A program made the translations under genes and the position numbers. A stretch of 64,000 nt of DNA, from NCBI GenBank assembly GCA_963752285.1, contig CAVVXN010000005.1, positions 1,184,001 to 1,248,000 of the forward strand. The letters run 5' to 3'. The stretch comes from an uncultured Planctomycetota bacterium (lineage in GTDB: Bacteria > Planctomycetota > PLA2 > JAEUHO01). Shown here piece by piece: positions 2,225-46,198 of this stretch (within the stretch, counting starts at the first letter, position 1; each line of letters begins with the position of its first letter). The notes below the pieces were generated by a model. It worked only from the letters and a program-made list of their open reading frames with translations. It had not been told where the DNA came from and ran no database searches.

Positions 2225-2587
2225 GTGCAGCGAGGCACCTCCCATCCCAAGTCCGCCCGCCTCCTCGACCGGAGGGACTTTCGTCACGTTCTCGACCACG
2301 GGGAGGTGCATCCGGGCCGGGAGGCGCTCGTCCGGAGAGTCGCCAACGGCCGCGGCCGGCCGCGTCTCGGCCTCTCCACGCCCCGTCGCTACGGGGGCGC
2401 CGTCGCCCGGAACCGCTTTCGGCGGCTCGTCCGGGAAGCGTTTCGTCAGGCCCAACACGATCTCGGCGCGTACGACTACCTCGTGTCCCCGCGACGTCAC
2501 CTGGCGCGTCCGACGCTCCCGGGGATCGCGCGGGACCTCGCCGCGAGCGCCGACCCGACCCGGGCCTCGCACCGGCCGTCACGGTGA
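2225..2587 (+). CDS. rnpA: Ribonuclease P protein component
   Basis: C-terminal part of ORF 1886..2587 from GTG 2225: RLLDRRDF, PRLGLSTPRRYGGAVARNRFRRLVREAFR (RNR motif). Followed by yidD. Confidence 0.92.
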   Translation: MQRGTSHPKSARLLDRRDFRHVLDHGEVHPGREALVRRVANGRGRPRLGLSTPRRYGGAVARNRFRRLVREAFRQAQHDLGAYDYLVSPRRHLARPTLPGIARDLAASADPTRASHRPSR

Positions 2588-2823
2588 TCCGCGCGCTCCT
2601 CCTCCTCCTCGTGCGCGCCTACCGGCTCTTCGTCTCGCCGTGGGTGCCCCCGGTCTGTCGGTTCACGCCCACGTGCGCCCGCTACGCCGAGGAGGCTCTA
2701 CGGCGCCACGGCGCGCTCCGGGGGTCGTGGCTCGCGCTCCGGCGTCTGCTCCGGTGCCGACCCGGGGGGGGCGCGGGCTACGACCCGGTCCCGGAGCGCG
2801 AAGTCAGCGCCCCTCGGCCCTGA
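2584..2823 (+). CDS. yidD: Membrane protein insertion efficiency factor YidD
   Basis: YRLFVSP...CRFTPTCARYAEEAL...LRRLLRCRP...GYDPVP motif. GTGA overlap with rnpA. Confidence 0.95.
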   Translation: MIRALLLLLVRAYRLFVSPWVPPVCRFTPTCARYAEEALRRHGALRGSWLALRRLLRCRPGGGAGYDPVPEREVSAPRP

Positions 2824-5794
2824 GGTCGATCGTGGTCTCGAGGTCCGACTTCATGCCGAGCCAGGACGAGTCCAGGTACAGGTGCGAGAGGTTCTCCCCC
2901 AATCGCGCCCGCATCACGTCCATCAGCTCGAGCGCGTACCGCGCGGGCGTCAGCGCCTGCGGCGGCGGGAACGCCTGGTCCTTCACGCGCACGAGGAACG
3001 CGGCGTCGGTGCCGTCCGCGCGGTCGTCCCGGAGCATGGTGCGCCCGAGCGTCCCGACCTCGATGCCGTCCTCGCCCTCGCTCTCTTCCTTCGCGGGGCG
3101 CACGACCTCGTAGCCCTGCTGGCGCACGTAGTCCTTGAGCTTCGCCGCGATCTGGGCCTCCTCGGACTCCCCCCCGGGCACGGGAGGGCTCTTCGGCGGG
3201 CTCGGTCCCACGAAGAGGCCCGTCGTGCCCTTCACGTACGGGATGTCCTTCTCCTTGCTCCAGCGCTCGAGCGTCTCGTCCCAGATCGCTTCCCGGTCCG
3301 GCGCCGCCGGCGCCGCCGCGGGCGCCGCGCCGCCCGCCGGCGGGTTCCCCCCGGGGGGCGGTGCGCCCGGCGCGGCCCCGGGCACCGCGCCCGGTGCCCC
3401 TCCCGGTGCCCCTCCCGGTGCGCCCCCCGGCGGAGGCGGGGTCTCGCTGCCGGAGGAGGTCGCCTTCGTGAACGCCGTCTCGTACTCCTTCTTCAGGCTC
3501 TCGAGCGCGTCCACGGCGAGGTCCCGCGCGCGCCGCACGAGGTAGCGCTCGAAGACCGCGTCCCGAACGTCGGCGAGCGGGGGCTCGCGCTCGCCCAGGA
3601 GCTCGATGTTCTGGAGGATCGCCTTCGTGTTGGCGTCGTGGAGGTTCGTCGGCACCGCGGCGAGCTCGCCGGGGTCGTCGAGACCCTGGAAGCCGCCTCC
3701 GGACGTCAGGTTCGGATCGCTTCCGAGATCGGGGAGCGCTTCCCACTGATCGCGCGTCAGGGGCTCCGCGGTCTCGTAGTAGCCGAGATAGCGCGCGTCG
3801 CCGGATCCGGGGAGGAACGGCCCGAGCGGGTCGTCGAGGAGCGACTTCATCGTGACGAGCGCCGGCTCCGCGCCGGGGTCCGGTCCGCCCTTCTCGGCCG
3901 CCTTCTTCGCCTTCTCCCAGTCGTCGTGCGCGGTCTTCGAACGACGCACGCGCTCGAGGAGGTCGTCGAAGACCTTCTCGAAGAACTGCTCGCGGAGCAG
4001 GATCTCGCGCCAGCCCTTCTCGAGGTAGGGCACGCGGTCGGGGCTGGTCTCGGGCACGAGGTCGGGGGGCGGCGGACCGAAGATGTCCTTGTCCGGAACG
4101 AGCACGGCCGGGTGGTCGGGCGCGATCCGCTTCGCGAGCTCGGCCCCGTGGCCGTGCTCCGGGTCCGCCGGGTCCGCCGCCTTGTAGTACGTGTCGGGGT
4201 GGTAGGTCCGCCAGCGCTGGAACGCCTCGGCCTCGTCCGGGTGGTCGTCGGGGAACGCCGCCCACATGCGCCGGAGCACGTCGTTCGGGACGAGCGGGAG
4301 GTGCGCGAAGAGCGCCCGGAACTTGCGCTGCACCGGCAGGCGGAAGTCGTCGCGTACGCCCGGGTCCTGATAGTACTTCTCGAGGTCGCCCTCGTTCCCG
4401 GACTGGAGATCGTCGTCCGTGTCGAGCGCCTCGTCGGGGCCCGCGCTCACGACGGCGAAGCCTCGCGTCAGGGGTTCGACGAGACGTACGCGCAGCGGGT
4501 GCTTCCAGGCGTCCTCGGGGATTTCGCCGAGGGCCGCAAGGACCCGCGGCCCCGGAGCGACCGACGCCTTCGGCCGGCTCGCCTCGGCGGAGAGGTCGTC
4601 ACCGCCGCCGTTCGCGCCGTCCGGTCCGTCCGAGGTGACCACGGCCGTCTCGCCCTCCGCCGGCGGCGCGTACCGGAGCGGGTGGTCCCAGCCGTCGTTC
4701 GGTAGCGAGGTCAGCGGAGCGATCGTCCCGGCCTTGGGCGAGGTGAGCAGTCGCTCGAGCTTCTCGGGCCAGGCGTTCACCGCGTTGTGCCAGCGCGCGA
4801 GCGCGTCCTGGACGCTTCCGAGCGCGGCGAGGGTCTTGACCTCCGCCAGCGTCGACGCGTCCAGGTCGTCGGCGGTCCCGGCCTCGCCGTCCGCGCCCCG
4901 GCTCGAGAGTCTCTCGCCGTCCGAGACGTACTCGAGATCGTGCTTCCAGCCGTCCTGGACGGGCTTCGCGGCGGCGGCGGGCAGGTCCGAGAGCTTCGCC
5001 GGCGCCTTGCCGTCGTGCGCCTTCTTCCAGGCGTCGATCTCGACCTGGACGCGCTCGAACGCGCGGAGCGTGAAGTCGATCGCGGCCAGCCGGTCGCGCA
5101 CCTGCTGGATGCGGGTCCGCGTGGTCTCGATCTGGCGGGCCTTCAGCTGGAAGTCCCGGCCACGAAGCGCGACGTACGCGAGGTCCACCTGCTCGTGCGC
5201 CTTCCGCCACGTCGCGTAGGCGTCGTCGAAGGTCAGGCCGTAGCGGGTCGTGTCCACGAGCGGACGGGCGAACTCGTCCTTCATGACTACGTCGCGCACC
5301 ACGTCCTGGAACTGCGTGGCCGAGCCGCGGAAGTACTCCTGGAGGAACTTGTCGTAGAGCGCGTCGTTGAACTGGAGCCCGTGCATCGCGCCGGAAACGG
5401 CCTCGCGCACCCCGACGGGGAGCTGGAACTCCTCCCCGACGGCGTATCCGGCCTCCCGGGCGGAGCCGGCGAGCATCAGGTGGCTCCAGGTCGTCGGGAT
5501 CCAAGGCTGGCGCGCGCGCAGGCCCTGGAAGTAGACGGAGTACCGGATGGACGGGGACCCGTAGTACTGCAGGAACGCCGTGTACGGCTGGCGGTGGTTC
5601 ACGAAGTCGAGGTCGGAGATGGTGACCCGCTCGGTCGGCGTCGCCGCGAAGGAGCCCGAGTAGTCGCGGCCGCCGACCATCTGCTGCCCGCACTTCACGG
5701 CGCCCACCACCGAGAAGGACACGAGGAGCAGGATCACGAGCCCCAGGAGGATGTGGCGCTCGTACTTCTTCATTCGCTTCGAGAAGCGGCTCAC
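2804..5794 (-). CDS. PpiD/SurA-like membrane-anchored periplasmic chaperone with three inserted GspG-like modules
   Basis: N-terminal TM (ILLGLVILLLVSFSV) and SurA_N-like segment (FNDALYDKFL...FQDVVRD...EQVDLAYVAL). The PpiD-like pattern resumes at DLEKYY...FRLPVQRK after three D(G/A)W...S.G.D...DDL modules. Confidence 0.65.
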   Translation of the reverse strand: MSRFSKRMKKYERHILLGLVILLLVSFSVVGAVKCGQQMVGGRDYSGSFAATPTERVTISDLDFVNHRQPYTAFLQYYGSPSIRYSVYFQGLRARQPWIPTTWSHLMLAGSAREAGYAVGEEFQLPVGVREAVSGAMHGLQFNDALYDKFLQEYFRGSATQFQDVVRDVVMKDEFARPLVDTTRYGLTFDDAYATWRKAHEQVDLAYVALRGRDFQLKARQIETTRTRIQQVRDRLAAIDFTLRAFERVQVEIDAWKKAHDGKAPAKLSDLPAAAAKPVQDGWKHDLEYVSDGERLSSRGADGEAGTADDLDASTLAEVKTLAALGSVQDALARWHNAVNAWPEKLERLLTSPKAGTIAPLTSLPNDGWDHPLRYAPPAEGETAVVTSDGPDGANGGGDDLSAEASRPKASVAPGPRVLAALGEIPEDAWKHPLRVRLVEPLTRGFAVVSAGPDEALDTDDDLQSGNEGDLEKYYQDPGVRDDFRLPVQRKFRALFAHLPLVPNDVLRRMWAAFPDDHPDEAEAFQRWRTYHPDTYYKAADPADPEHGHGAELAKRIAPDHPAVLVPDKDIFGPPPPDLVPETSPDRVPYLEKGWREILLREQFFEKVFDDLLERVRRSKTAHDDWEKAKKAAEKGGPDPGAEPALVTMKSLLDDPLGPFLPGSGDARYLGYYETAEPLTRDQWEALPDLGSDPNLTSGGGFQGLDDPGELAAVPTNLHDANTKAILQNIELLGEREPPLADVRDAVFERYLVRRARDLAVDALESLKKEYETAFTKATSSGSETPPPPGGAPGGAPGGAPGAVPGAAPGAPPPGGNPPAGGAAPAAAPAAPDREAIWDETLERWSKEKDIPYVKGTTGLFVGPSPPKSPPVPGGESEEAQIAAKLKDYVRQQGYEVVRPAKEESEGEDGIEVGTLGRTMLRDDRADGTDAAFLVRVKDQAFPPPQALTPARYALELMDVMRARLGENLSHLYLDSSWLGMKSDLETTIDLRAEGR
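3390..3425. repeat. 12-bp tandem repeat x3 (cccggtgcccct) encoding GGAP repeats
   Basis: cccggtgcccct cccggtgcccct cccggtgcgccc, within a Pro/Gly/Ala linker of the 996-aa protein. Confidence 0.8.
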
Positions 5795-6200
5795 GTCGGA
5801 CTCCGTCGGAACGCGGTTCGAGTCGGACGAGGATACCGGCCGTCGGGCGGGATCCGGCGTACTGCTCGGGCTCGGCGGGGCGCAGGCGGTCGGCGCGGAC
5901 TATCGGTGCCGCCGCCCCTCGTCCGGGGCCGCGTGCCCCGCGGGCCACGGTCCCGCGCGCGGCCCGGCGGACGCCAGGAGCCCGAATCCGGCGCCGATGC
6001 CCGTCGGTCGCCCCGCCCCGCGGCGCCCCGCGGAGTCGCGGCCCCGTCGCGCCGCGGACACGCCGTGTGCGAGCGCGCCACGGGAACGAGTCCGAGCGGC
6101 CGGCGTAAGCTCCCGAACGGCGGGATCTTGCATCCGACGCGTCGCGCGCTCCACGGCCTCGCGGGCCAGCGCCGCCCAACCTCGGTAGGCTTGGCGCGCC

Positions 6201-7034
6201 ATGGAAGAGGAACGCGCCCCCGAGAGCCCGAGCCAAGCCGCGCCCGGCCGCGCCGCTCCGGTCGGGGGCGGACCGGATGCCGGGGAGGCGGCCCGACCGT
6301 CCGACGAGGCGGCGCCGCCCGAGGCGGCCCCCGCAGGCCCCCGTCCGACGGCGATGCGCGCGACCGAGGACGAGTCCGCGAAGGGCGGGGCGGGATCGGA
6401 GGACGACGCGGCCGAGGACGGGGACGGGGACGAGGACGGGAACGGGGCCGACGAGGCCGCCGCCGGCGCGCGTCCGGCCCGGAAGAAGACGAAGCGCGCG
6501 TTCTCGCCGGTACCGCCGGAACGGCTCGTCGGCGCGGTCGAGGCCATGCTCCTCGCCGCAGGGGACGTGCTGACCCCCGAGCGGCTCCGCGAGCTGCTGG
6601 CGCTCCCGTCCGTGATCCCCGTCCGGGAGGCGGTCGAGGAGGTCGAGCGCCGCTTTCGGGCGGCCGACCTCGCGGTCGAGATCCGCGAGCTCGCCGGCGG
6701 CTGGCGCGTCACGACGCGCCCCGAGTACGCGGAGTACGTCGCGCGCCTGCGGCGCCGGGGCGCGAGCGACCGCCTGAGCCCGAGCCTCCTCGAGACGCTC
6801 TCGATCGTGGCGTACCGCCAGCCCGTGCCGCGCGTGGAGGTCGAGCGGATCCGCGGCGTCGCCTCGGGCGACGCGCTCCGTGCGCTGCTCGACCGACGGC
6901 TCCTCAAGGTCGTCGGCCGGAGCGACCAGCCGGGGCGCCCGCTCCTCTACGGAACCACGCGCCGGTTCCTCGAGGTGTTCGGCCTGTCGAGCCTCTCCGA
7001 CCTCCCGGCGAAGGGCGACCTCCGGGGCCTGTGA
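6201..7034 (+). CDS. scpB: SMC-Scp complex subunit ScpB with disordered N-terminal extension
   Basis: VEAMLLA, ELAGGWRVTTRPEY, LSPSLLETLSIVAYRQPV.R.EVERIRGV, PGRPLLYGTT..FL..FGL.SL.DLP. Confidence 0.95.
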   Translation: MEEERAPESPSQAAPGRAAPVGGGPDAGEAARPSDEAAPPEAAPAGPRPTAMRATEDESAKGGAGSEDDAAEDGDGDEDGNGADEAAAGARPARKKTKRAFSPVPPERLVGAVEAMLLAAGDVLTPERLRELLALPSVIPVREAVEEVERRFRAADLAVEIRELAGGWRVTTRPEYAEYVARLRRRGASDRLSPSLLETLSIVAYRQPVPRVEVERIRGVASGDALRALLDRRLLKVVGRSDQPGRPLLYGTTRRFLEVFGLSSLSDLPAKGDLRGL

Positions 7035-7053
7035 GCGACGGCGCGCGGGCGCC

Positions 7054-7974
7054 TCAGCGCGGCTCCGCGAGCAAACGCCCCTCGGGGTCGAACACCCGGA
7101 CGGCGAAGTCGCGGCGCATGCGCTGGCGCCACCGCTCGAACTCCGGTCGCTCGAGCGGGTGCCGACGCAGGTCCTCCTCGAGGCGCGCGACGAGCTCGCC
7201 GCGGGTGCCGGTCCACGGCGCGGTCCGGCCGACGACCTCGTAGACGTGCCACGTCGTGCGGCCCTCTTCGTCCACCCGCAGCGGGCCCACGAGGTCTCCG
7301 TCCGCCGCGGCGAAGAGCCGAGCCTCGACGTCCGGCCACGCGAGATCCCCCCGCGCCACCGAAGGCAGGACGCCGCCGGACTTGCCGGTGGGGTCGATCG
7401 ACTCCTGGAGCGCGGTCAACGCGAAGTCGGCGCCCTGACGCAGCCGCGCGAGCACACGGTCCGCGCGGTCCCGGTCGCCGAGCACGATCACGCGGACGTC
7501 CAGGCGCGGCCGACGGCGCGTGTCGAGTCGGACGATCCGCATCAGGAGGAGCTGCCTGCGAAGTCGGGGCGCGAGGACGTCCCGTTTCCAGCCCTCCACC
7601 GTCGTCTCGTACGCGCGCCGGATCTCGGACGCGAGGTCCACGTCCTCGCCGAACGTCCGGTGGAGCTCGGCCTCGCGCGAAGCCGCCTCCTTCTCCACGG
7701 CTTCCCGCACCGCGTCTCCGGGGACCCGGATCCCCAGCCGATCGGCCTCGCGGACGACGATCGTCTCGTCCACCAGGTCGTCCACCGCGCGGAGCCAGCT
7801 CTCACGCTGGCGGCGGAAGAGGAACGCGGCCAGCTCCGCCGGGGTGACGGGCTGCCCCCCGACGACCGCGACCGCGGACGAGGGCCCCTCCCCCTTGGCC
7901 GCGCCCGGCGTGCCCGCGAGCCCCACGACGGCGACCAACACACCGGCCGCGCAGAGGGCGCGGGCGGCGTTCAC
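7054..7974 (-). CDS. Parvulin-type peptidyl-prolyl isomerase / SurA-PrsA-like exported protein
   Basis: GTG 7974 overlaps the upstream stop. Signal peptide, AVVGGQPVT..EL, GADFALTALQESID...SGGVL, LVGPL rotamase motifs. Confidence 0.82.
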   Translation of the reverse strand: MNAARALCAAGVLVAVVGLAGTPGAAKGEGPSSAVAVVGGQPVTPAELAAFLFRRQRESWLRAVDDLVDETIVVREADRLGIRVPGDAVREAVEKEAASREAELHRTFGEDVDLASEIRRAYETTVEGWKRDVLAPRLRRQLLLMRIVRLDTRRRPRLDVRVIVLGDRDRADRVLARLRQGADFALTALQESIDPTGKSGGVLPSVARGDLAWPDVEARLFAAADGDLVGPLRVDEEGRTTWHVYEVVGRTAPWTGTRGELVARLEEDLRRHPLERPEFERWRQRMRRDFAVRVFDPEGRLLAEPR

Positions 7975-8680: not shown

Positions 8681-10180
8681 TCAGCGGTACTTGACGATGA
8701 CGTCCTGCTGCGCGCCCCCGCACCGGGTGCAGAGGTATTCGACGGTCTCGCCGGTCTGGAACGTCTTGCTGAGCAGGCCCTCGCCGTGGCAGGTCGAGCA
8801 GGGCCGGAACTCGCGCTCACCCAGCTCGAACAGGTCGGAGTGCTCGATGAAGTACGCGAGGACCCAGTTGGAGCGCTCGTTGGGCTTGCTGGCCGCCCAC
8901 CATCCGTCCCGGGTCGGCGGCTTGGGGATGTCGATCGCGGGCGCGGCGCCCCCGCTCTTGCTCGAGGACTTGTGCGTGCCCCCGCCCCGGTTGCCCTTGC
9001 GCTGCGGCGGCTTGATCTTGGGCGGGTTCACGATGAACGTGCCCGCCCCGTAGCTCACGCGCGACCACGGCGCCTTGAAGCGCCCCTGGCGGCGCCCCTG
9101 CCAGAAGGTCTGGGCCTCGGCGGGCGTCACGTCCTCGTCGTAGCGCTTCATCTCGCGCTCGGCGAGACGGGCGAACGCGGCCTCCGGCAGCTTCTGGCGG
9201 GTCCACGAGGTGATGTCGTTGATCTGGACGTCCTTCTCGCGGACCTTGTCGTCGATCAGGTCGCCGACGATCTTCACGAAACGGCGTCCGGCGACGGTCT
9301 CGAAGTAGCTCGTCCGCTCCTGCTGGAGGTCCTTCTTCAGGTCCTCGAGCTTCTCCTTCACGGCGTCGCTGGCATCGGGGTGCTTCTCGCCGAAGCCGTC
9401 GAGGATCTCCTTCACGCGCTTGAAGAAGTGCATCTGCAGCTTCATCCGCGCGTCCTTCAGCGTTTCCAGCGCGGCCTGGTCCTGGAGCAGGCTCTCGATG
9501 CGGGCCAGGCGGTCCTTCGCGATGTCCTTGTTCAGGTACTCGTCGTCGGCCGCGCACGCCGCGTAGCTGTCGCGGGCCTCCTCCAGCGCGCCGGCCCACT
9601 CGGCGTACTGGGCGATGCGCCAGTGCTCGCGCGAGGTGAGGGCGCCCGGGTCGAGCCCCTTCTGCTCCATCTCCGACTTGAGCTGCTCCTTCATTCGCGT
9701 CATCAGCTGGTCGGGGCTCCAGATCTGGCGCGCGTCGAGCGGCTCTTCCTCGATGGTGAGGACCTTCCCCCGGGGGATCTCGACGATGTCGCCCCCGCGG
9801 CGGAGCTTGACCACCCGGTCGTCGCTCGACTCCACGAGCCCGAGCACCTCGTCGGTGTCGCCGCCGTCGAGCTGGATCGTGACCCGGTTCCCCGTCACGG
9901 GGCCCTGGTCGACGCTCTTGATCCCGATCTCCTCCTCGATCTTGTCGCGGTCTTCCGGATCGAGCGCATCCCACGCGAACGAGCGGTACGCGCCCGACAC
10001 GTAGTCCTCCACCGTGACCTGCTTCTCGTCGGTCCGCTCCTGGATCACACGGCCCTTGATCGCCTCGCCGGTCCGCAGGCGGATGACGTCGGCGCGTGCG
10101 AGGAGGGTGAGCGGCGCGAGCAGGAGGAACGCGCCGAGGAGGGGCAGGAGTGCGCGGCGCCGGTTCGAGCTCGGAGTCAT
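8681..10180 (-). CDS. Exported protein with N-terminal beta-rich modules, helical core and C-terminal CxxC..CxxC zinc finger
   Basis: Signal peptide ending ARA-D. DVIRLRTGEAIKGRVI module. C-terminal CSTCHGEG...CTRCGG. Confidence 0.8.
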   Translation of the reverse strand: MTPSSNRRRALLPLLGAFLLLAPLTLLARADVIRLRTGEAIKGRVIQERTDEKQVTVEDYVSGAYRSFAWDALDPEDRDKIEEEIGIKSVDQGPVTGNRVTIQLDGGDTDEVLGLVESSDDRVVKLRRGGDIVEIPRGKVLTIEEEPLDARQIWSPDQLMTRMKEQLKSEMEQKGLDPGALTSREHWRIAQYAEWAGALEEARDSYAACAADDEYLNKDIAKDRLARIESLLQDQAALETLKDARMKLQMHFFKRVKEILDGFGEKHPDASDAVKEKLEDLKKDLQQERTSYFETVAGRRFVKIVGDLIDDKVREKDVQINDITSWTRQKLPEAAFARLAEREMKRYDEDVTPAEAQTFWQGRRQGRFKAPWSRVSYGAGTFIVNPPKIKPPQRKGNRGGGTHKSSSKSGGAAPAIDIPKPPTRDGWWAASKPNERSNWVLAYFIEHSDLFELGEREFRPCSTCHGEGLLSKTFQTGETVEYLCTRCGGAQQDVIVKYR

Positions 10181-11893: not shown

Positions 11894-13110
11894 GGCGCAC
11901 CTCCCGTCGGGGGTCCCTGGACCATGCGCTCCTCCACGGTCCCGTAGAGGCCGAGTCTCAGCTCGATCACCGACCCCTCCACCTTGCCGCCCATCTCCTG
12001 GAAGAGCAGCACGACGTCGCTCGCGTGCACGTCGGGGTCGAGCCGACCGTTCCGGTACGTGACGCGGACCGGCGCCTTCGGCCGGAGGAGCGCCACACCG
12101 TCCACGAGGCGCTCCATCTCGGCGGCACGGAACACGCCCGAGAGCACGAACTCGTCCATGCGTCCGTTGAAGGGCGTCGCTCCGTCCGAGATCGACAGCG
12201 GCGCGGCGCCCGACTCGGGGACCGTGATGCGCTTCACGGGCGCGCTGGCGAGCTCTTCGGTCCCCTGCGGCCGCTTCCGGGCCATCTGGTAGCGCTCGAG
12301 CCCGTCCACGCGCATCGACACCTCGCTGCCGTCGAAGGTGACCGCGAGGTGCGTCCACGTCGTCCCGTCCGCCCGGATCGGCGAGCCCTTCGTCGAGAAC
12401 TCCTCCAGCACGCCGGGCGAGGGCCGATCCGAGACCGGTTCGAGCTGCATCTTGAGACGCACGTCGTATGCGGCGTCGTTTCCGTTGCGCACGAGATCGA
12501 GCGCCCAGGCGCCCTCGGCCTTCGCGATCGTCATGACCGGACCGCCCGCGTCCACGGCCAGCCAGACGGAGAGGCCGAGCCCCTCCGTCATCGCGAAGCT
12601 CGACTGCGGCTCGAAGAGGATGCTCGCGTTCCTCGTGAACCGCGCCGCCTGTCCGGTGTAGCCGTCCGGCACGATCTCCACGCCGGTGCTCGACCGGACG
12701 GGGTAGTCGCCGCTCGCGCCGTCGAGGCGCTCGAAGTTGTCGGTGAGGACGGGCGCGTTGACGGCCGCGCCGATCACGAGGCTCCCGTCGCGCGACCGCG
12801 TCCGGAGGTTCCAGATCGCACGCACGCCGCCGTTGCTGCTCTGGATGCAGGCGTACGCCGTCTCGCGGAGGATCGCCAGGGACTGCGCCGCGCGCGAGGC
12901 GTGGCCGGTGTTGGTCAGGAAGCCGACCCCGATCCCCATGATCATGCCCATGATCGCCATCACGAGCATCACCTCGAGGAGGGTGAACCCACGCGGGCGA
13001 GGCGAGCCCGCCGCGCGCCGACGACGGCGGGCGGCGCCGGGACCGGGGCCCCGGCGTGCGCGGGTCCGCACGACCGACGACGGCTCGGGGGTCGGGCGGG
13101 CTAGTCCCAC
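11890..13110 (-). CDS. Prepilin-type protein (GspH/FimT-like) with LamG/concanavalin-like domain
   Basis: PRG|FTLLEVMLVMAIMG. LamG-like motifs LSVWL, WTHLAVTFDG...VDG, FNGRMDEF. Exact start uncertain. Confidence 0.85.
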   Translation of the reverse strand: MGLARPTPEPSSVVRTRARRGPGPGAARRRRRAAGSPRPRGFTLLEVMLVMAIMGMIMGIGVGFLTNTGHASRAAQSLAILRETAYACIQSSNGGVRAIWNLRTRSRDGSLVIGAAVNAPVLTDNFERLDGASGDYPVRSSTGVEIVPDGYTGQAARFTRNASILFEPQSSFAMTEGLGLSVWLAVDAGGPVMTIAKAEGAWALDLVRNGNDAAYDVRLKMQLEPVSDRPSPGVLEEFSTKGSPIRADGTTWTHLAVTFDGSEVSMRVDGLERYQMARKRPQGTEELASAPVKRITVPESGAAPLSISDGATPFNGRMDEFVLSGVFRAAEMERLVDGVALLRPKAPVRVTYRNGRLDPDVHASDVVLLFQEMGGKVEGSVIELRLGLYGTVEERMVQGPPTGGAP

Positions 13111-13760
13111 GACTTGACGTCGTCCTGCGTGTTCGGGATGCCGTCCGGGCCCGCGCTGAAGATCTGGAAGCTATCGGGCTGCGCGAAGCCGGTCCGACCC
13201 TCCGCCTCGTACTTCCAGGGCTTCGGGGTCATCTCCTCGCCGCTCGCGGTCGTGTACGAGGGCGGGCTCTCGGTGGCGCGGGCGTACTCGGTGTGGGGGA
13301 AGTAGAAGAGCGGGTTGCCCCAGCCGTCCACGATCTCCCAGAGCTTCTTCCCCTGGCTCGTCACGGCCTCGGAGAGCTCGTCGTCGTCGGTGTTCACGAG
13401 GTCCTTGTCGCCCAGGTCCACCTTCACGCCCGCCGTCTCCCAGTAGAGCGCCTGGAAGAGGGACTCGATCCCCTCGTTGCTCGAGTTGGGGAGCGCCTTG
13501 ATCGACTTCGTGCCCCCGGCGCCGCTCTGGATGCGTCGGGCGTCGATCGGCGGGTAGCGCCCGAACCGCTGGTAGTACGCGTTCGTGGCGACGGAGAGCT
13601 TCCGGATGCGCGTCTCCGTCTCGAGCTGGGGCCGCTTCCTCGACCAGAGGGAGAGACCGACGAACGCGAGCCCCGCGAGCACGGAGAGGATGCCCATCAC
13701 CACGAGCACCTCGATGAACGTGAAGCCCCGCTCTCCTCGAGCCGGTCTCGTCGCTCGCAT
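13101..13760 (-). CDS. Prepilin-type protein (GspG-like pseudopilin)
   Basis: ERG|FTFIEVLVVMGIL, YYQRFGRYPP, DGWGNPLFY, FQIFSAGPDGIPNTQDDV (T2SSG-type C-terminus). GGAG upstream of ATG 13760. Confidence 0.88.
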   Translation of the reverse strand: MRATRPARGERGFTFIEVLVVMGILSVLAGLAFVGLSLWSRKRPQLETETRIRKLSVATNAYYQRFGRYPPIDARRIQSGAGGTKSIKALPNSSNEGIESLFQALYWETAGVKVDLGDKDLVNTDDDELSEAVTSQGKKLWEIVDGWGNPLFYFPHTEYARATESPPSYTTASGEEMTPKPWKYEAEGRTGFAQPDSFQIFSAGPDGIPNTQDDVKSWD

Positions 13761-17861: not shown

Positions 17862-19829
17862 TCACCGGGAGCCTCCCGCGGCGTTCCCGGACGTTCCACC
17901 GGTCGCGCCGCCCGCGGGGTTCGCGCCCGCCGCACGCTCCTTCAGCTGCTTCTCGAGGTCCCGCCGCTGCCGGCGCTCGATCCTGTCGAGGAGGATCTTC
18001 GTGCGGACGCCGTCCGACCGCCGGCCGAAGACGGCCGTCGGCGACTCCGCGTCGTCCAGGGCGAGGTCCGCGAGCACGATCGAGCCCGCGTCGCCTCCGC
18101 GGGGGTCGGCGGACACGAGGTGGATCTCGACCCCGGGCCGGAACAGGAGCTCGAACGAGCCGTCCTGGTCGCGGCCTCCCTTGCGGAAGATCTTCTCGGT
18201 CTCGACCAGGAGCCCCTGCCCGTTCGACTGGCAACGCTGCACGAAGTCCTGGAACACCGCCTCCGCGCGCTGGCTCGCGGCGACACGGCCGGTGACGAGG
18301 ATGCTCGGCTCGAGGGCGGGGTACTTCGTCTTCCGGCCCACGCTCTGGTACCCCGAACCGTTCTGGCTCCCCTTGGGCCGGTAGTACGTGATGTCCTGGG
18401 AGCTCTCCCCCACCTTGAGCTGGACCTCCTGCAGGTACACGTCCTTCGTGGACTCGAGGTTCTTCTGGAGCACCGCCAGCGTCTTCCCGAGGAGGGCGCC
18501 CGGCGCGGCGAGGTCGGCCAGCGCGGCGTGCTTGACCTCGAGGTCCTGCATGGTCTCGAGCGCGTGGCGGAAGCGTCCGTCCTTGTCCTTGGCCTCGTTC
18601 TTCGCCCGCTCCAGGTGGGTCAGCGTGGCGTGCGCGGTCTCCGCCGCGGAGGAGCGACCCACGTAGAGGACGCCGAGGATGCCGGCGGCCACCACGGCCG
18701 CGCCCGCGGCCCAGATGCCCTTCTCGACGAAGTCCCGACGAGTGCGGAGCGACTTCGGGAGCACGGCGATCGGGAACGCCTCGTCGGCCATGTACGCCTG
18801 CGCGAGGCCCACCGGGACCGCGAACTCGTGCGGCGCCCGCTCGAGCATCGTGCGTTCCTCGTCGGACAGCCCCGACAGGTCGCTGATCGCGAACGGGTTC
18901 ATGCGCTCCACGGGCACGCCCATCGCCTGCTTCAGGTAGAGGTCCAGCCCCTTCAGCGACGCGCCGCCGCCGGCGAGGAGCACCCGGTCCACGCGCAGGT
19001 CGGGGAGCTTCGTCTGCGCCCGCGCGATCATCAGCGTGGACTGGATCAGCGAGGCGAGCTGCCCCGCCACCCCGAGGATCGCGTTCGCGACCTTCTCGGC
19101 GGTGGCGTCGGGGTACCGCGCCTGGCCGCGCGGCGTCACGTCGGCCTTCGCGATCTTCATCTGCTCGGCCTTCCCGAAGGAAGTCGCGAACGCCTGCTGG
19201 ATGGCCTCCGTGAACACCTTCCCGCCGGGCGTCGCGTTCCGGGCGAACAGGAGCTGGCCGCCGCGCTGCAGCGCGAGGTCCAGGTCCTCCGCGCCCACGT
19301 TGACGAGGAGGGTCGTCTCGTCCTCGCGGTAGGTGGCGTTCACCGCGAACGCGTTGAAGAGCGCGATGCTGTTCGGGCACGCGCCGGCGGTGGGGACGCC
19401 GCCCGCCTGGAGCGCCTGGATCTGGCGGTCGAGGTACGTGTTCCGCGCGAGGGCGACCAGGATCGTCTCCTCGCCGCGCGTCCCCTCGGGGTCCGGGAGG
19501 TCGAGCTTGCGGTAGTCGGCGGAGACGTGTCCGCCCGACTGGCTCCCGACCTCGTCCACCTCGTACTTCATCAGGGTGCGCAGGCGCCACTCGGGGACCG
19601 GCGGTACCTGGCTGTACCGGATGATCACGTCGCGGCCCGTGAGGCCGACCGACGCGCCGGCGCCCTTGAAGCCGCGGGCGGCGAGCGCACGGCCCGCGAC
19701 GGGACGCGTCTCGTCGTTCAGGCGGTCCACGAAGGCGCGCTGGACGACGTAGCCCTGGCCCTTCGCGCGCATCTTCACCGCGCGGAGCGAATGGCTGCCG
19801 ATCGTGACGCCGAGGCCGACTCTCGCCAT
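17862..19829 (-). CDS. pilM: Type IV pilus assembly PilM-like protein fused to a PilN-like TM/periplasmic part
   Basis: VGLGVTIGSHSLRAV, LLVNVGAE..DL, GGKVFTEAI, VLLAGGGASLKGL..YL...G.PVE..NPF, FAVPVGLA. Then a TM (GIWAAGAAVVAAGILGVLYV) and a coiled coil. Confidence 0.87.
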   Translation of the reverse strand: MARVGLGVTIGSHSLRAVKMRAKGQGYVVQRAFVDRLNDETRPVAGRALAARGFKGAGASVGLTGRDVIIRYSQVPPVPEWRLRTLMKYEVDEVGSQSGGHVSADYRKLDLPDPEGTRGEETILVALARNTYLDRQIQALQAGGVPTAGACPNSIALFNAFAVNATYREDETTLLVNVGAEDLDLALQRGGQLLFARNATPGGKVFTEAIQQAFATSFGKAEQMKIAKADVTPRGQARYPDATAEKVANAILGVAGQLASLIQSTLMIARAQTKLPDLRVDRVLLAGGGASLKGLDLYLKQAMGVPVERMNPFAISDLSGLSDEERTMLERAPHEFAVPVGLAQAYMADEAFPIAVLPKSLRTRRDFVEKGIWAAGAAVVAAGILGVLYVGRSSAAETAHATLTHLERAKNEAKDKDGRFRHALETMQDLEVKHAALADLAAPGALLGKTLAVLQKNLESTKDVYLQEVQLKVGESSQDITYYRPKGSQNGSGYQSVGRKTKYPALEPSILVTGRVAASQRAEAVFQDFVQRCQSNGQGLLVETEKIFRKGGRDQDGSFELLFRPGVEIHLVSADPRGGDAGSIVLADLALDDAESPTAVFGRRSDGVRTKILLDRIERRQRRDLEKQLKERAAGANPAGGATGGTSGNAAGGSR

Positions 19830-34640: not shown

Positions 34641-35035
34641 CCTCGGATCGTACGCGTCCCCGCCGACGCTCGCGCGTCCGGGCGAGCGGTCGGCCGGGAC
34701 CGGTCCGGCGCGTCGCGCCCCGACCGCTCGCACGTCGTTCTCGAAACGGCCGAAACGCGTTCGGAGACGCGTCCGTGACGGGCCGCGCGATGGTCGGCCC
34801 GGGGACGCGTCGGCGCCCCCGGGGAGGCGAGTTTCCGGCGCGTCCGCGTGACGGGCACGTGACAGCGCACCCGTAACAGAGGTCGCGTTCCGGGTCCGAG
34901 CGGGACTCGAGGGCCCGGCGCCCGCCGTCGGAGGGACGGCGCGCGTCGGGGAGTCGGCGGAGGGACGCAGCGGCGGTCGCCGCGCGTGGCCTCCTCGGCG
35001 TCCTGCCGCTCGAAGCCGGAACGGTGGAGTCCGGG

Positions 35036-38000
35036 ATGAAGCGCAACGTCCTCGTCCTATTCGTCGTCACCCTCGGCCTCTCGATCGCGGCCTGTCGCGG
35101 ACGACGGAGCCTCGTCGTGGAGGAGGCCCAGGCGCCCGAGGCGGCGCCGACCTCCGGCATGAAGAACCCGAAGGCCGGCGACGTCGAGGTGATCTCGCGC
35201 CGGCCGGTGCCCGCGCCGAACGCGCCGGCCGAGTCCGACGTCGTGGTGATCCCCGATCAGACCGCGCCGTCGTCGGGCGACGTCGCGATGGTGCCGGACG
35301 GCGGGCCGGCCGCCCAGCCGGCCGCCGCCGGCGACACGGACGAAAACGAGGCGGGCGAGAACGAAGCGGGCGAGCATGACGCGGGCGAGCCGGAAGCGGG
35401 CGAGGACGACGCCGGCGAGGCCCCGCCCGCCGGCGCAGCGCCCGCCGCGCCTTCCGGGGACGACGCCCAGCGTCTCCTCGACGAGGCGAAGAAGCGCGCG
35501 GCCGTGGAGGCGCAGAAGCGCGACGCGCTCGTGCAGAGCTTCCTGGTCAAGGCGAAGCAAGCCGAGGGCGACGGCGACCTCGACGCCGCCCGCGATCTCT
35601 ACGGCAAGGCCTTCGACCTCGACCCGACGAACGTCCAGGCGCGCGAGGGCGTCGAGCGCCTGACCATGGAGCGCCCGAGCACCGTCGGCGAGTTCCTCGG
35701 CCGCACGCGCACCGCCGAGACCGTACGGCGCGAGCAGGCCGCCGCCGAGGTCCGCACGTACCTCGAGCAGGGCCGCACGATGGAGGCGCGCGAGGACTAC
35801 GCGGGCGCCATCGACCAGTACCAGCGGGCCCTGGCGATCGTGTCCTGGTACACGGACCAGCGCGACTTCGGCGTCACGGCGGACAAGGTCCGGGACCTCA
35901 TCGAGAACGCGAAGTACAAGCGCGACCTCGCCGCGCGCGTCTCCCGCCAAGACCAGATCAAGGCGGCCCAGGCGGAGCGCGAGCAGGAGCTCGTCTCGGA
36001 GCGCGAGCGCCGCATGGGCAAGATCCGCGCCTACTTCGAGGAGGCGCACCGCGCGTTCCAGCGCGGCGACTACGCGCTCGCTCGGGAGTACGCGAAGCAG
36101 ATCCAGAAGCTCGACCCGCAGAACAACGACGCCGAGCGACTCGTGTGCATCTCGTACGACGCGCAGCACCTCGACGACAGCGAGCGCGCGCGCATGATGT
36201 TCGCCGACCAGTGGAAGGCGGTCATGGAGGACATGGACCGGTCCCTCCTCCCGCAGGTCGAGACGGTCCAGTTCCCGAGCGACTGGCTCGACACGATCGC
36301 GCAGCGCGGTCCGCCGGTCATCGGCGACGAGCAGGCCGAGCAGGACTCGAGCGTCGCCCAGATCCTGACCACCCTCGAGTCGAAGCGCGTGAAGGGGCTC
36401 AGCTGGGAGAACGCGAACCTCGACCAGGTCGTCTCCTACCTCCGCACGATCACGGGCCTCAACTTCTTCATCACCCCCACCGTCCGCGCCGAGAAGTTCG
36501 ACGAGGTCTCGGTGACCTTGAGCCTCGACGACGTCTCCGTGAAGACGATCCTCGACCTCATCACGTCCCAGCACGAGCTGAAGTGGGAGCCGAAGGACGG
36601 CGTCGTGCGGATCGCCACGGGGGGCGAGGTCCGCGGGGACATGCTCCTCCGGTTCTTCGACGTGAAGGACTTGAACGTCCAGATCCGCAACTTCATCGGG
36701 CAGGAGATCAACCTCACGCCCTCGAACTTCACCCCGCCGGAGCCGCCCGAGCTGCCCGAGCCCACCGCCATCTACCCGGCGGACGGTCTCGTCGAGCTCA
36801 TCCGCGAGACGATCGGCAGCGAGGGGACCTGGGACGAGCCCGCGTCGATCGACACGAGGAACGGCGTGATCATCGCGCGCAACACCACCCCCATCCTCGA
36901 GCAGGTTCAGAAGCTCCTCGACGAGCTGCGCCGCAACAGCGGCATGCTGGTCAACCTCGAGGTCCGCTTCCTGACGGCGGAGGACAACTTCCTCCGCGAC
37001 GTCGGCGTAGACGTGCGCGGCCTGGGCGACAACTCGCAGGGCGTCGGTCAGCCGGGTCTCGGCACGCAGGTCGTCCAGGACGACATCTTCTTCGGCACGA
37101 GCGCACAGCCCTACGGCGTTCCGTTCGGCGTCTTCCCCGAGCCGTCCTCGGGCGGCACCTCGCACGACGCGGGCATCTTCTACAACGACGGCGCCGACGG
37201 CGCGTACAGCGGGCGCGTCGAGAACCTCTACGACCTGCTGCTCGGCAACCCCGACGTGCTGACCAGCACGGGCGGCCTGTCGTTCCAGAACACGTTCCTC
37301 GACGACACGCAGGTCGAGGTCATCCTCCGCGCGGTCGAGAAGAGCGAGCGCATCCAGCGCATCACCGCCTCGCGCATCACGGTGTACGACACGCAGCGCG
37401 CCACGATCTCGGTCCTGAACCAGGTCGCATACGTGGCCGACTACGAGGTCGAGATCGCGCAGGCGTCGAACATCGCGAACCCGGTGATCCAGACGATCCA
37501 GGACGGCATCGTCCTCGACGTCCGCCCCGTCGTGTCCTCGGACCGTCGGTTCATCCTCCTCGAGCTCCGCCCCACGGTGGCGCTCCTCACCCGCCCGATC
37601 GCGACGTTCAGCACGTCGCTGGCGTCCGGCCCCGGTCCGGTGTCCTCGTCCGCCCCGGTCATCATCCAGATCCCGGAGCTCCTCGTGAGCCGTGTCCGGA
37701 CGACCGTGGCGATGCCCGACGGCGGCACGCTGCTCCTCGGCGGCCTCAAGTTCTACGAGCAGGTCCACGAGGACACGGGCATCCCGTTCCTCTCGGACAT
37801 CCCCGTGGTGTCGCTCCTCTTCTCGCGGAAGGGGACGTACACGAACCGCCGCGACCTCCTGGTCCTCATCACCGCGCACATCGTCCCGCTCGAGGAGCTC
37901 GAGCCGAAGGACGACCTCGAGATCCCGGCGGCCCCCATCACGGAGTGGACACCCGTCCAACCGGTCGACGGCGCTCCCTCTGCGCCCCCCGCGCCCGCCC

Positions 38001-38098
38001 CGTGCGCCCCCTGCGCGGCGGGGAACGGGATGGGCGGCCCCGTCCTCATGCCGGCGACCGGCGCCCCCGCCGGCCCGCCGCCGGTCGTCCGCCGCTGA
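35036..38098 (+). CDS. Secretin-like lipoprotein 1 (TPR/coiled-coil N-terminus + secretin domain)
   Basis: Lipobox IAAC (Cys20), TPRs, EVRFL...DVGVD, DGIVLDVRPVVS.DRR, PDGGTLLLGGL, IPFLSDIPVVSLLFS, DLLVLITAHI. Confidence 0.88.
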   Translation: MKRNVLVLFVVTLGLSIAACRGRRSLVVEEAQAPEAAPTSGMKNPKAGDVEVISRRPVPAPNAPAESDVVVIPDQTAPSSGDVAMVPDGGPAAQPAAAGDTDENEAGENEAGEHDAGEPEAGEDDAGEAPPAGAAPAAPSGDDAQRLLDEAKKRAAVEAQKRDALVQSFLVKAKQAEGDGDLDAARDLYGKAFDLDPTNVQAREGVERLTMERPSTVGEFLGRTRTAETVRREQAAAEVRTYLEQGRTMEAREDYAGAIDQYQRALAIVSWYTDQRDFGVTADKVRDLIENAKYKRDLAARVSRQDQIKAAQAEREQELVSERERRMGKIRAYFEEAHRAFQRGDYALAREYAKQIQKLDPQNNDAERLVCISYDAQHLDDSERARMMFADQWKAVMEDMDRSLLPQVETVQFPSDWLDTIAQRGPPVIGDEQAEQDSSVAQILTTLESKRVKGLSWENANLDQVVSYLRTITGLNFFITPTVRAEKFDEVSVTLSLDDVSVKTILDLITSQHELKWEPKDGVVRIATGGEVRGDMLLRFFDVKDLNVQIRNFIGQEINLTPSNFTPPEPPELPEPTAIYPADGLVELIRETIGSEGTWDEPASIDTRNGVIIARNTTPILEQVQKLLDELRRNSGMLVNLEVRFLTAEDNFLRDVGVDVRGLGDNSQGVGQPGLGTQVVQDDIFFGTSAQPYGVPFGVFPEPSSGGTSHDAGIFYNDGADGAYSGRVENLYDLLLGNPDVLTSTGGLSFQNTFLDDTQVEVILRAVEKSERIQRITASRITVYDTQRATISVLNQVAYVADYEVEIAQASNIANPVIQTIQDGIVLDVRPVVSSDRRFILLELRPTVALLTRPIATFSTSLASGPGPVSSSAPVIIQIPELLVSRVRTTVAMPDGGTLLLGGLKFYEQVHEDTGIPFLSDIPVVSLLFSRKGTYTNRRDLLVLITAHIVPLEELEPKDDLEIPAAPITEWTPVQPVDGAPSAPPAPAPCAPCAAGNGMGGPVLMPATGAPAGPPPVVRR
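35342..35416 (+). repeat. Five 15-bp degenerate tandem units encoding E-x-[E/D]-A-G
   Basis: gaaaacgaggcgggc gagaacgaagcgggc gagcatgacgcgggc gagccggaagcgggc gaggacgacgccggc. Confidence 0.85.
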
Positions 38099-43981: not shown

Positions 43982-44059
43982 TCCCGACTCGAAAACCAGC
44001 CCGTCCGAGCCCAGTCGCGGGAGGCCGGCGGGTTCCTTCTCTAGGAGCGGTCGCGCATC

Positions 44060-44767
44060 ATGACCAAGTCGCGCATCTTCACCCTCGCCTTGCTCGCGCT
44101 GGGGGGCGCCCTACTCCTCGCTTCACCGGCCCTGGCGCAGGAGGAGGAGAGCAGGAACGCCTTCTCTCACATCATCCAAGACGGCGGCCCCATCGGGATC
44201 GTCATCATCGTCCTCTCGGTCGCGACGCTCGCCCTGGTGATCGAGTACGGCGTCAACGTGCGCCGCGACAAGATCTGCCCCCCCGAGCTCGTGGACGAGC
44301 TCGAGGCGCTCCTCGAGGAGGAGGAGTACCAGGAGGCGCTCGAGCTCTGCGAGTCGGAGCCCAACTTCCTGACCAACTCCCTCGCCGCCGGCCTGCCCCG
44401 ACTGAACGAGGGGTACGCCAAGATGAAGGAGGCCATGGAGGCGCAAGCCGGGATCGAGGCGGTGAAGCTCCAGCAGAAGGTGGGCTGGATGCTCTTCCTC
44501 TCGAACGTGGCCCCCATGCTCGGCCTCTTCGGGACCGTGACCGGTATGATCTCGGCGTTCGACAAGATCGTCTCCCTCGGCGCGAAGGTCACGCCGAAGG
44601 ATCTCGCGGGCGGCATCTCGGCCGCGTTGATCACGACGTTCCTCGGTCTTCTCGTCGCGATCCCCGCCCTCTTTGCCTACCAGTACTTCCGCAACAAGGC
44701 GACCCGCATCTCGATCGACTTCGCGGGGATCCTGGAGGACATGACGGAACGATTCCGAAACCGCTAG
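44060..44767 (+). CDS. exbB: MotA/TolQ/ExbB proton channel protein
   Basis: APMLGLFGTVTGMISAF, LAGGISAALITTFLGLLVAIP. Confidence 0.93.
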   Translation: MTKSRIFTLALLALGGALLLASPALAQEEESRNAFSHIIQDGGPIGIVIIVLSVATLALVIEYGVNVRRDKICPPELVDELEALLEEEEYQEALELCESEPNFLTNSLAAGLPRLNEGYAKMKEAMEAQAGIEAVKLQQKVGWMLFLSNVAPMLGLFGTVTGMISAFDKIVSLGAKVTPKDLAGGISAALITTFLGLLVAIPALFAYQYFRNKATRISIDFAGILEDMTERFRNR

Positions 44768-44839
44768 CCGAACGCGGCCGCGGGTCCCGACCCCGATTCA
44801 CGTGCGCTGCTCGTCCGACCCGATGACCGGAGCCCCCCC

Positions 44840-45346
44840 ATGGCCTGGAAACGCCCGCGCGATGAGGACACCAAGCCCAACCTCACGCCGATGATCGACA
44901 TGACCTTCCTCCTGGTCGTGTTCTTCATGATCGCGATCGACCTGTCCCAGAAGGAGTTCCAGCCGGTCGAGCTGCCCTACGCCAAGAACGCGATACCGGA
45001 CAAGGAAGACCCCGACGTCAAGCGGCTCGTCATCAACCTGCTCGAGAGCGGCGACATCGTGTTCAAGAACTACGTCGGCAAGCTCGCCACGGGCTCGCCG
45101 GCGGAGCAGGCGGACGCGCTCGTCAATCTGAAGAAAGAGCTCGAGATCCTGACCGCCGACATCAAGCTGAAGGAGCCGGACGGCGCCAGCAAGGTCCCGG
45201 TGATGATCCACGGCGACCGCTCCGCGCGCTGGCAGTTCGTACAGTGGATCATGCAGGTGTGTGCCGATCCCCGCGTGCAGATCTACAAGATCCAGTTCGC
45301 GGTGAAGGGCCCGACGCCGAAGGAGAAGGCGGAGGGAGGGGGCTAG
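44840..45346 (+). CDS. exbD: ExbD/TolR family protein 1
   Basis: NLTPMIDMTFLLVVFFMI, V.LP.A, VMIHGDRSA.W. Confidence 0.92.
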   Translation: MAWKRPRDEDTKPNLTPMIDMTFLLVVFFMIAIDLSQKEFQPVELPYAKNAIPDKEDPDVKRLVINLLESGDIVFKNYVGKLATGSPAEQADALVNLKKELEILTADIKLKEPDGASKVPVMIHGDRSARWQFVQWIMQVCADPRVQIYKIQFAVKGPTPKEKAEGGG

Positions 45347-45461
45347 TGCGTCGCCCCCCCACCCCGCGCGGTGGTCTCGATTCCGGGCCGGGCTCCTCGC
45401 AGCCGGCCGTACGTGCCCGTCCGCGCCGCGCCGGCGGCGCCCCGTTCCGCTGGAGTCTCCG

Positions 45462-46037: not shown

Positions 46038-46198
46038 GCGGTCGGGCCGCCTGACGGCCCGCGGCGGGGGCGCGACGTGCGTGCGCCTTCGTCGTCGGCT
46101 CCGTCCTCCGGACGGGGCCTCCCGACGACCGGCGCGTCGCGCCGGTGGGATCCGACCCGGAGAGCGACCCGGCGCGCGTCGGGCCGGGAGGTCGGACC

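Follow-up and report, generated by a model that had tools for sequence, protein, structure and literature searches.

Three tandem pseudopilin-head modules inserted in a putative PpiD-type chaperone of one Planctomycetota family

What are the heads of pseudopilins doing in the middle of a chaperone-like protein? The question is raised by a gene near one end of the 64,000-nucleotide stretch of Planctomycetota DNA analysed here (the window; contig CAVVXN010000005.1, positions 1,184,001 to 1,248,000). The gene occupies positions 2804..5794 of the minus strand, begins with a GTG start codon, ends with the stop codon at 2804-2806 and encodes a product of 996 amino acids (aa), P0001. The GC content at its third codon positions (GC3) is 0.94, as for a real gene, and it is present in one copy in its 4.64-Mb genome. 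Of the chaperones, PpiD lies nearest to the Sec exit, and what determines its choice of clients is not well understood; pseudopilin heads, for their part, are known as building blocks of filaments only. Here three such heads are fixed inside a PpiD-type protein, with the positions of the calcium site kept. An earlier note on this DNA had placed three modules resembling the head of the pseudopilin GspG at 4390-5150, between two motifs that lie close together in PpiD-type proteins; this span falls inside one open reading frame (ORF), where it corresponds to residues 216-469, and all three modules quoted are present in it. The explanation that we consider best, at a probability of roughly 0.6, is a PpiD-type chaperone that carries the heads as a block of satellite domains. 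We refer to the window's Planctomycetota family as f1 and to its sister family as f2; the organisms are known from metagenome-assembled genomes. Four alignments underlie the profile comparisons: 22 f1 members (A2), f2 proteins (A3), 16 PpiD-type representatives (A4) and 13 f1 sequences (A6).

Two complete pseudopilin heads and a third without its helix

We find that T2SSG (PF08334) is the only Pfam family matched by whole P0001 (E 1.1e-13; 51.6 bits at a cut-off of 21), in two stretches, and that it is matched in all 22 aligned f1 members. Module 1 (M1, aa 216-311; 4862..5149, minus strand) is a complete T2SSG head with a 43-residue helix, a beta-hairpin and an acidic loop, and aa 221-312 taken alone match profile positions 11-100 of 108 (E 8.9e-4). 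Module 2 (M2, aa 312-401; 4592..4861, minus strand) is likewise a complete head with its acidic loop, aa 313-395 alone matching positions 13-95 (E 6.4e-6). Module 3 (M3, aa 402-463; 4406..4591, minus strand) is a partial head that consists of the beta-sheet and the acidic loop, the long helix being absent; aa 396-467 alone reach E 0.054 and profile positions 63-100 only. Profile-profile comparison aligns M1 with M2 at probability 99.1 (E 1.4e-18) over 68 columns, comprising helix and sheet, and M1 with M3 at probability 98.1 over 36 columns only, comprising sheet and acidic loop. Given the coverage of the separate segments and the comparisons between modules, aa 216-463 are three tandem T2SSG heads, two complete and the third partial. 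The claim of three pilin-head modules thus stands in full for M1 and M2 and in part for M3.

Searches of structure databases lead to the same proteins. Among all PDB sequences the f1 profile matches nothing but major pseudopilins (8 different chains, E 1.4e-6 to 7.2e-4), which align to M1 and M2 across nearly the entire soluble domain; the best matches are 29jd_A for M1 (E 3.8e-6) and 2kep_A for M2 (E 1.4e-6). Structure prediction yields the block as a single compact unit, with high confidence: the model covering aa 216-470, made from the 13 sequences of A6, has a mean predicted local distance difference test score (pLDDT) of 90.9 and a predicted template-modelling score (pTM) of 0.88. In this model M1 and M2 each show two helices, one long and one short, together with a beta-hairpin; M3 shows a short helix and a hairpin. 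When the block is compared with the PDB by Foldseek, the first 14 listed rows are all major pseudopilins from type II secretion systems (T2SS), with probability 1.00 in the first ten; their target TM-scores are 0.46-0.68 and the best E-value is 7.4e-3, no listed row having E<=1e-3. With VIA-align, M2 (aa 311-416) superposes on EpsG (3fu1_B) with Z 11.2 and a root-mean-square deviation of 2.5 A over 98/112 residues, and on PulG (1t92_A) with Z 10.7 and 2.2 A over 93/108 residues; the type IV pilin PilA1 comes next, at Z about 6. The pseudopilin-head fold of the insert had been set beforehand as the test on which the proposal could be refuted, and the model and the superposition of M2 on EpsG both agree with that fold. 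Because the superposition rows are those of M2, the assignment of M1 draws on its Pfam match, its profile match to 29jd_A and its likeness to M2. In the ESM Atlas the block lies nearest to small T2SSG proteins, at 0.77, too low a value to be more than a lead.

Do the heads retain the calcium site of the pseudopilins? In the excerpted text of PMC13081927, the Ca2+ ligands of OutG and PulG are the side chains of D117, T/S122 and D125, possibly D124, and two backbone carbonyls. The D, +5, +7, +8 spacing of these ligands recurs in all three modules, at D302, T307, D309 and D310 in M1, at D392, G397, D399 and D400 in M2, and at D454, T459, D461 and D462 in M3. By hand count on the alignment the first aspartate of the loop is kept in 21/22 (M1), 21/22 (M2) and 22/22 (M3) sequences and the following DD pair in 22/22 in every module; one M3 loop is four residues longer. 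Judged from the alignment, the ligand positions of PulG and OutG are kept in all three modules, which we regard as putative Ca2+ sites, and the suggestion that the acidic loop is a calcium loop fits the published positions.

The heads come without the parts that a pilin needs at its N-terminus. P0001 has no N_methyl match in Pfam, a search of the window for prepilin motifs returns true pilin genes only and nothing in P0001, and no prepilin leader, N-methylation motif or hydrophobic alpha1N precedes any module. Lacking leader and hydrophobic N-terminal helix, the modules can neither be cleaved by a prepilin peptidase nor enter the core of a filament. That P0001 is itself a GspG or type IV pilin is rejected on the same observations and on the NCBIfam search, in which its only match is the GspG equivalog TIGR01710, at 29.4 bits, far under the cut-off of 88.85.

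One f1 variant, P0128 (1089 aa), carries a PDZ domain (aa 387-465) nested in M2, between helix and beta-sheet. The block itself tolerates further insertions.

The scaffold around the block and the origin of the insertion

The block interrupts a scaffold that profile homology assigns to the PpiD type. Aligned by hhalign, the PpiD-type representatives (A4) and the f1 members (A2) match with probability 100 (E 4.5e-41) over 585 columns, from residue 6 to residue 975, and the three modules correspond to a single continuous gap, about 255 columns long, which in P0146 falls between residues 192 and 193. P0146 (567 aa) has the canonical plan, SurA_N_3 (6-149) followed by Rotamase_2 (242-414), and the point at which the block is inserted falls between the two. 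The two motifs that flank the insert therefore adjoin in PpiD-type proteins, as the earlier note had it. The f2 proteins (A3) align with A4 over 570 columns (probability 100, E 6.5e-47). The C-terminal segment that completes the chaperone is included, the alignment reaching residue 975 of 996 with A4 and residue 980 with f2. In Pfam, SurA_N_3 is matched by 8 of the 22 f1 members (best 1.2e-6) and SurA_N_2 by 2; among six f2 proteins the counts are 5 (best 2.4e-10) and 4. By profile homology the flanks, too, are what had been proposed, of SurA_N/PpiD type. The model NF008054 (626 positions, 'peptidylprolyl isomerase'), which we take to be the PpiD model PRK10788, is matched by 7/16 members of A4, the best at 9.5e-18 and none above 64 bits. 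In the ESM Atlas the clusters nearest to whole P0001 are SurA_N_3/Rotamase_2 proteins, at 0.85, again below the level of more than a lead.

Hydropathy and charge counts on the 22 aligned members served to call the topology. P0001 has a single transmembrane anchor at aa 15-33 (5696..5752, minus strand), preceded by a 14-residue tail with 6 K/R and 1 D/E; its best 19-residue window has a mean of 2.89, at residue 15, and the runner-up 0.82. In each of the 22 members a single 19-residue window, at residue 12-15, is strongly hydrophobic (Kyte-Doolittle mean 2.07-3.01); the second-best segment has at most 1.72, and the N-terminal tail carries 3-6 K/R and 1 D/E. A single hydrophobic window behind a positive tail points to a PpiD-like, N-in, single-pass anchor, which would leave scaffold and heads in the periplasm; P0001 is thus predicted to be an inner-membrane protein whose bulk is periplasmic. 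The N-terminal periplasmic domain (aa 36-215; 5150..5689, minus strand) is of the SurA_N_3 or PpiD NC-domain type according to the Pfam matches of the family and to hhalign, and the C-terminal periplasmic part (aa 464-996; 2807..4405, minus strand) aligns by hhalign to the remainder of PpiD-type proteins. Within the latter lies an unconserved, low-complexity linker rich in Pro, Gly and Ala (aa 781-835; 3290..3454, minus strand; majority fraction 0.09). Just past the anchor stands an invariant cysteine, Cys35 (5690..5692, minus strand), which is confined to the module-bearing family: a cysteine lies 1-4 residues past the anchor in 22/22 f1 proteins, as the only one in 12 of them, and in 0/6 f2 orthologs. 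Its identity as a lipobox cysteine is rejected, since position -1 is K/Q/D/S/R/T/F/G and not G/A/S. Elsewhere in the genome, the SurA_N-type genes seen carry a signal peptide or a lipoprotein signal in place of an anchor, and among P0001 and the genome's three PF13624 matches P0001 is the sole membrane-anchored SurA_N-type protein.

How old is the block, and how often did it arise? With the N-flank alone as query, matches are found in 27/28 other f1 and 7/11 f2 genomes among 40 searched from the order. Full-length P0001, searched against 401 genomes across the phylum, has a match at E<=1e-10 in 16/16 other f1 genomes (9 genera, the window's included), with 0/6 in f2 and none elsewhere among the 401; this was a strict first look by which weak matches are missed. 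The f2 ORFs are 684-756 aa long, about 250 aa shorter than those of f1. By hhalign A2 and A3 align over 651 columns and residues 1-980 (probability 99.9, E 2.1e-31), the module region being essentially without an f2 counterpart, bar a few spurious columns, and Pfam finds T2SSG in 0/6 f2 orthologs. The genes around the two forms agree as well. Nine f1 loci, representing 8 genera, share one gene order as far as contigs reach (tblastn, rows >45 bits): prepilin with LamG, prepilin, 499-aa protein, 196-aa protein, scpB, PpiD-type gene, then genes for a HEAT protein, a histidine kinase and a sigma-54 activator. Five f2 loci have the same order around the shorter ortholog, and this shared order makes the two forms positional orthologs.

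Beyond the order, the f2 profile was searched against 1.84 billion representative proteins and matched 933 at E<=1e-3, of which 150 reach 1e-10 and 50 reach 1e-30. The Pfam scan took 61 of the 150, namely rows of at least 494 aa from P0065 to P0150, seven long rows omitted, and P0156; the best-ranked f2-type rows and short fragments lie outside it. T2SSG is found in 23/24 scanned proteins of at least 950 aa (P0138 matches nothing) and in one protein of 722 aa, and in 0/36 of the other scanned PpiD-type representatives (494-797 aa). Those 36 include 16 with SurA_N_3 or SurA_N_2 and 5 with Rotamase_2 (two of which also have SurA_N); of the remainder one matches an unrelated membrane-protein family only and 16 have no match. 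Given a positional ortholog in f2 and distant PpiD-type proteins that are all without the block, the block was gained once, on the stem of f1, that is, in the ancestor of one Planctomycetota family. A search with M1 and M2 for longer homologs returned only 4 family members, a yield that does not show how prevalent internal T2SSG domains are elsewhere.

The modules have kept their places since then. A tree on 92 columns, with 22 M1, 22 M2, four heads of canonical GspG and two non-pilin modules, unites all M2 in one clan (99/93), leaves M1 unresolved and parts M1 and M2 together from canonical GspG by a 99/93 branch; the duplication that gave M1 and M2 is older than the radiation of f1. Hidden Markov models (HMMs) of the modules score 79.5, 100.7 and 68.8 bits on their own position and 18-48 bits on the others. 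Mean pairwise identity within f1 is 0.36-0.38 for the modules and 0.33-0.43 for parts of the scaffold, so the block appears to be under the same constraint as the chaperone scaffold. A gene fusion or assembly artefact is rejected, the arrangement being conserved in 22 aligned sequences from independent assemblies.

Possible roles of the block

Escherichia coli PpiD offers the frame in which we read these data. According to excerpts of PMC9643414, it has chaperone activity and associates with SecYEG and YfgM; its anchor holds it at the SecY lateral gate, the NC domain lies over the channel, and the protein touches chains on their way out. The remaining domains sit within loops in a nested fashion and are believed to move as rigid bodies. 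Since the block of P0001 is inserted just past the NC-type domain, we read it as a satellite on a Sec-proximal chaperone. P0001 would sit beside SecYEG like its E. coli counterpart and receive emerging polypeptides. The head block, stabilised by Ca2+, would be a satellite domain, as the parvulin satellites of SurA and PpiD are, and would add a surface for binding or positioning. Its likeliest partners may be pseudopilins, pilins or the assembly platform, the normal contacts of pseudopilin heads; this is the least certain step. A pilus-related role of the block is plausible.

Several results weigh against this reading, some touching the chaperone and others the link to pili. The N-flank (1-230) and the C-flank (468-996) of P0001 itself match nothing credible in Pfam even at E<=10. 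NF008054, whose equivalog threshold is 493 bits, is matched at E<=0.01 by 0/4 f1 and 0/6 f2 proteins scanned. When the A3 scaffold profile is run against PDB sequences it finds no solved chaperone, only acidic low-complexity matches, and A4 finds only 3rgc_A (4.5e-4), with SurA at 0.13-0.3; the fold of the flanks is predicted from sequence profiles. A parvulin domain is undetectable by sequence: Rotamase is matched in Pfam by 0/22 f1 and 0/6 f2 proteins; in hhalign, nevertheless, about aa 515-745 are aligned with P0146 over its Rotamase_2 region (242-414). On the side of the pili, f2 has the identical neighbourhood without the block. Pilin genes are no more numerous where the block is present, with 14, 14 and 12 N_methyl matches per genome in f1 and 17 and 18 in f2, and an expansion of pilin genes (12-14 against 17-18) is rejected as the reason for the block. 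Finally, T2SSG also ends unrelated long proteins of the same genome, described below, which suggests a general-purpose rather than a pilus-specific module.

How close, then, are the modules to the pilins of their own genome? The earlier note had matched them to a GspG-like pilin 8 kb away. This is a prepilin-type protein (13104..13760, minus strand) with an N_methyl match and a GspG-like C-terminal motif, so that a similar C-terminus on a true prepilin stands; a long insert separates its helix from the DGWG strand, it has no T2SSG match at E<=1e-4, and it is matched by the module HMMs over its last 25-41 residues only, at 7.5-17 bits. Nearer is the genome's canonical GspG (contig position 1,131,011, 53 kb before the window), at 49 bits with the HMMs of M1 and M2 and 33 with that of M3. 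This nearness would suit a block that is a pilin-specific device, tethered beside the Sec exit: it would template or hold the heads of freshly exported pseudopilins or pilins during Ca2+-dependent folding, or dock the chaperone to the pilus or T2SS platform, and so couple export to assembly. A template, dock or Ca2+ module for pilus assembly is what the earlier note had suggested. The conserved calcium-ligand positions and a periplasmic, membrane-proximal site, which is where pilins are handled, point the same way, as does the PDZ domain of P0128, placed in the alpha-beta loop of M2: in the excerpted text of PMC13081927 the corresponding loop of major pseudopilins is linked to secretion specificity. 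The conserved neighbourhood with the pilin operon has also been taken in favour; it holds throughout the f1 loci, but equally in the module-free sister family, and such synteny is uninformative on what the modules do. Against a device of this kind stand also the weak similarity to the operon's own pilin, the unexpanded pilin genes of f1, and the fact that head-only domains are without the helix that makes most filament contacts. We consider it possible, though on balance unlikely.

In a bolder version the head block would turn this PpiD-type protein into a dedicated connection from the Sec translocon to type IV filament machines: the three tethered heads, loaded with Ca2+, would mimic the surface of a pseudopilus and catch newly exported pilin-like proteins or the platform, and other T2SSG-tagged proteins of the lineage would be brought to that machine by the tag they share. 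If this were true, export of pilins, their Ca2+-dependent folding and their hand-over would be physically coupled. We hold this to be unlikely and offer it as speculation.

The tag occurs on proteins of other kinds. A 1777-aa open frame (contig C4, about 201.9-207.2 kb) has a TIR domain at aa 635-734, WD40 at 1241-1385 and a C-terminal T2SSG at 1693-1774; should this be a single protein, it could be cytoplasmic, an odd place for a Ca2+-dependent pilin head. In a 736-aa protein of unassigned family (contig C5, about 704.7-706.9 kb) T2SSG occupies aa 656-730, after a hydrophobic segment, and a 928-aa open frame of the same genome is the third unrelated long ORF to end in it. Non-ortholog long ORFs (696-769 aa) with T2SSG are present in 3/3 other f1 genomes (G391, G167, G279) and in 0/2 f2 genomes.

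Could the block then be a generic, Ca2+-stabilised rigid spacer or scaffold, unconnected with pili, that lengthens or stiffens the chaperone or acts as a Ca2+-dependent switch of its stability? The occurrence of T2SSG at the ends of unrelated ORFs in this genome and in long non-ortholog ORFs of other f1 genomes would be expected of such a part, the pTM of 0.88 suggests a rigid unit, and most of the conserved residues are fold-determining. A mere spacer accounts poorly for three copies held in register throughout the history of the family, each of them position-specific (69-101 bits with its own HMM, 18-48 with the others), or for an invariant cysteine that co-occurs with the block. We regard it as quite unlikely. 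A PpiD-type chaperone with a satellite head block remains our preferred explanation, and the f2 gene, in the same place without heads, is a natural control for it. Two questions become testable in this way: can satellite domains retarget a Sec-associated chaperone, and what do pilin heads bind outside a filament?

Neighbouring genes and comparison with known systems

Next to the PpiD-type gene lies scpB (6201..7034, plus strand), divergent from it in the window. In 7/8 f1 loci that show both genes scpB is co-directional and directly upstream of the ortholog; it is inverted in the window and in the other examined locus of the window's genus. Then comes the last gene of the pilin operon (7054..7974, minus strand, start approximate), which encodes a secreted SurA-like peptidyl-prolyl isomerase with SurA_N_3 and Rotamase. 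A scan of window positions 2500-7100 for promoters and terminators found none, and matches to the sigma-54 -24/-12 pattern do not exceed chance expectation across the window (21 observed, 28.5 expected). The sequencing runs listed for the gene are small-share DNA runs only, with no RNA among them.

This setting bears on whether P0001 is a dedicated part of the neighbouring pilus-like system, its likeness to PpiD being ancestral only. The gene order is kept as far as contigs reach in 9/9 f1 and 5/5 f2 loci, and the genome has other SurA-like paralogs. Yet a housekeeping gene, scpB, separates P0001 from the operon, none of those paralogs seen among the PF13624 matches is membrane-anchored as P0001 is, and the homology to PpiD-type proteins extends over the full length. 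We consider a role as such a component very improbable.

Several other genes of the window deserve mention. The secreted 499-aa protein of the pilin operon (8681-10180, minus strand) has no Pfam match and ends in CxxCxGxG...CxxCGG, resembling a DnaJ-type zinc finger; it is conserved across f1 and more weakly in f2. A PilM-like protein of 655 aa (17862-19829, minus strand) matches PilM_2 over aa 7-343 only, its C-terminal 300 aa being unmatched. Two secretins of about 1,000 aa each lie at 34877-38098 and 48735-51776 (both plus strand), the first with TPR matches, and between them are a cluster of three ExbB/ExbD (44045-46729) and a sulfatase. Neither PilB/GspE nor PilC/GspF turned up in the window.

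How does P0001 compare with the systems that are known? A search of the full-text literature found no description of an architecture that joins a PpiD-type chaperone to T2SSG (InterPro architectures are not covered by it), in agreement with the earlier note, which knew of none. The combination is present, unremarked, in domain databases, where the protein P0165 carries the precomputed pair PF13624 and PF08334.

SurA is a periplasmic chaperone with two parvulin satellites between the N- and C-terminal segments of its core. P0001 resembles it in having a core made from N- and C-terminal segments with tandem satellites inserted between them. SurA is soluble, has a signal peptide and carries parvulins as satellites, whereas P0001 is predicted to be anchored, has no Rotamase match and carries pilin heads; the relation in sequence is weak, the E-values between A4 and SurA chains being those given above (0.13-0.3).

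With GspG, PulG, EpsG and XcpT (PDB 3fu1, 1t92, 4lw9, 3gn9, 2kep, 5o2y) the modules share the head fold, the spacing of the calcium ligands and the GspG signature DPWG...Y...S-G-D-G...DD. Unlike GspG they are without leader, N-methylation motif and alpha1N, they are internal and in tandem within a chaperone, and the third copy is helix-less.

The remaining comparison is with PpiD. Like the E. coli protein, P0001 has a single N-terminal anchor, a large periplasmic part and an N-terminal domain of the SurA_N_3 type, its family is homologous to PpiD-type proteins along the full length by profiles, and it follows the nested plan in which extra domains sit in loops after the NC domain (PMC9643414, in excerpt). 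Unlike PpiD, it is without a detectable parvulin, has about 255 additional residues that form the three heads and an invariant cysteine past the anchor, and the f1 and f2 proteins scanned stay far under the score of the PpiD equivalog NF008054. The parts, a PpiD-type scaffold and a GspG head, are thus known. New, as far as searched, are a PpiD-type chaperone as the host, a triple tandem block inserted in a loop and not appended, its fixation throughout one family with a block-free ortholog next door, and the preservation of GspG's calcium-ligand positions within it.

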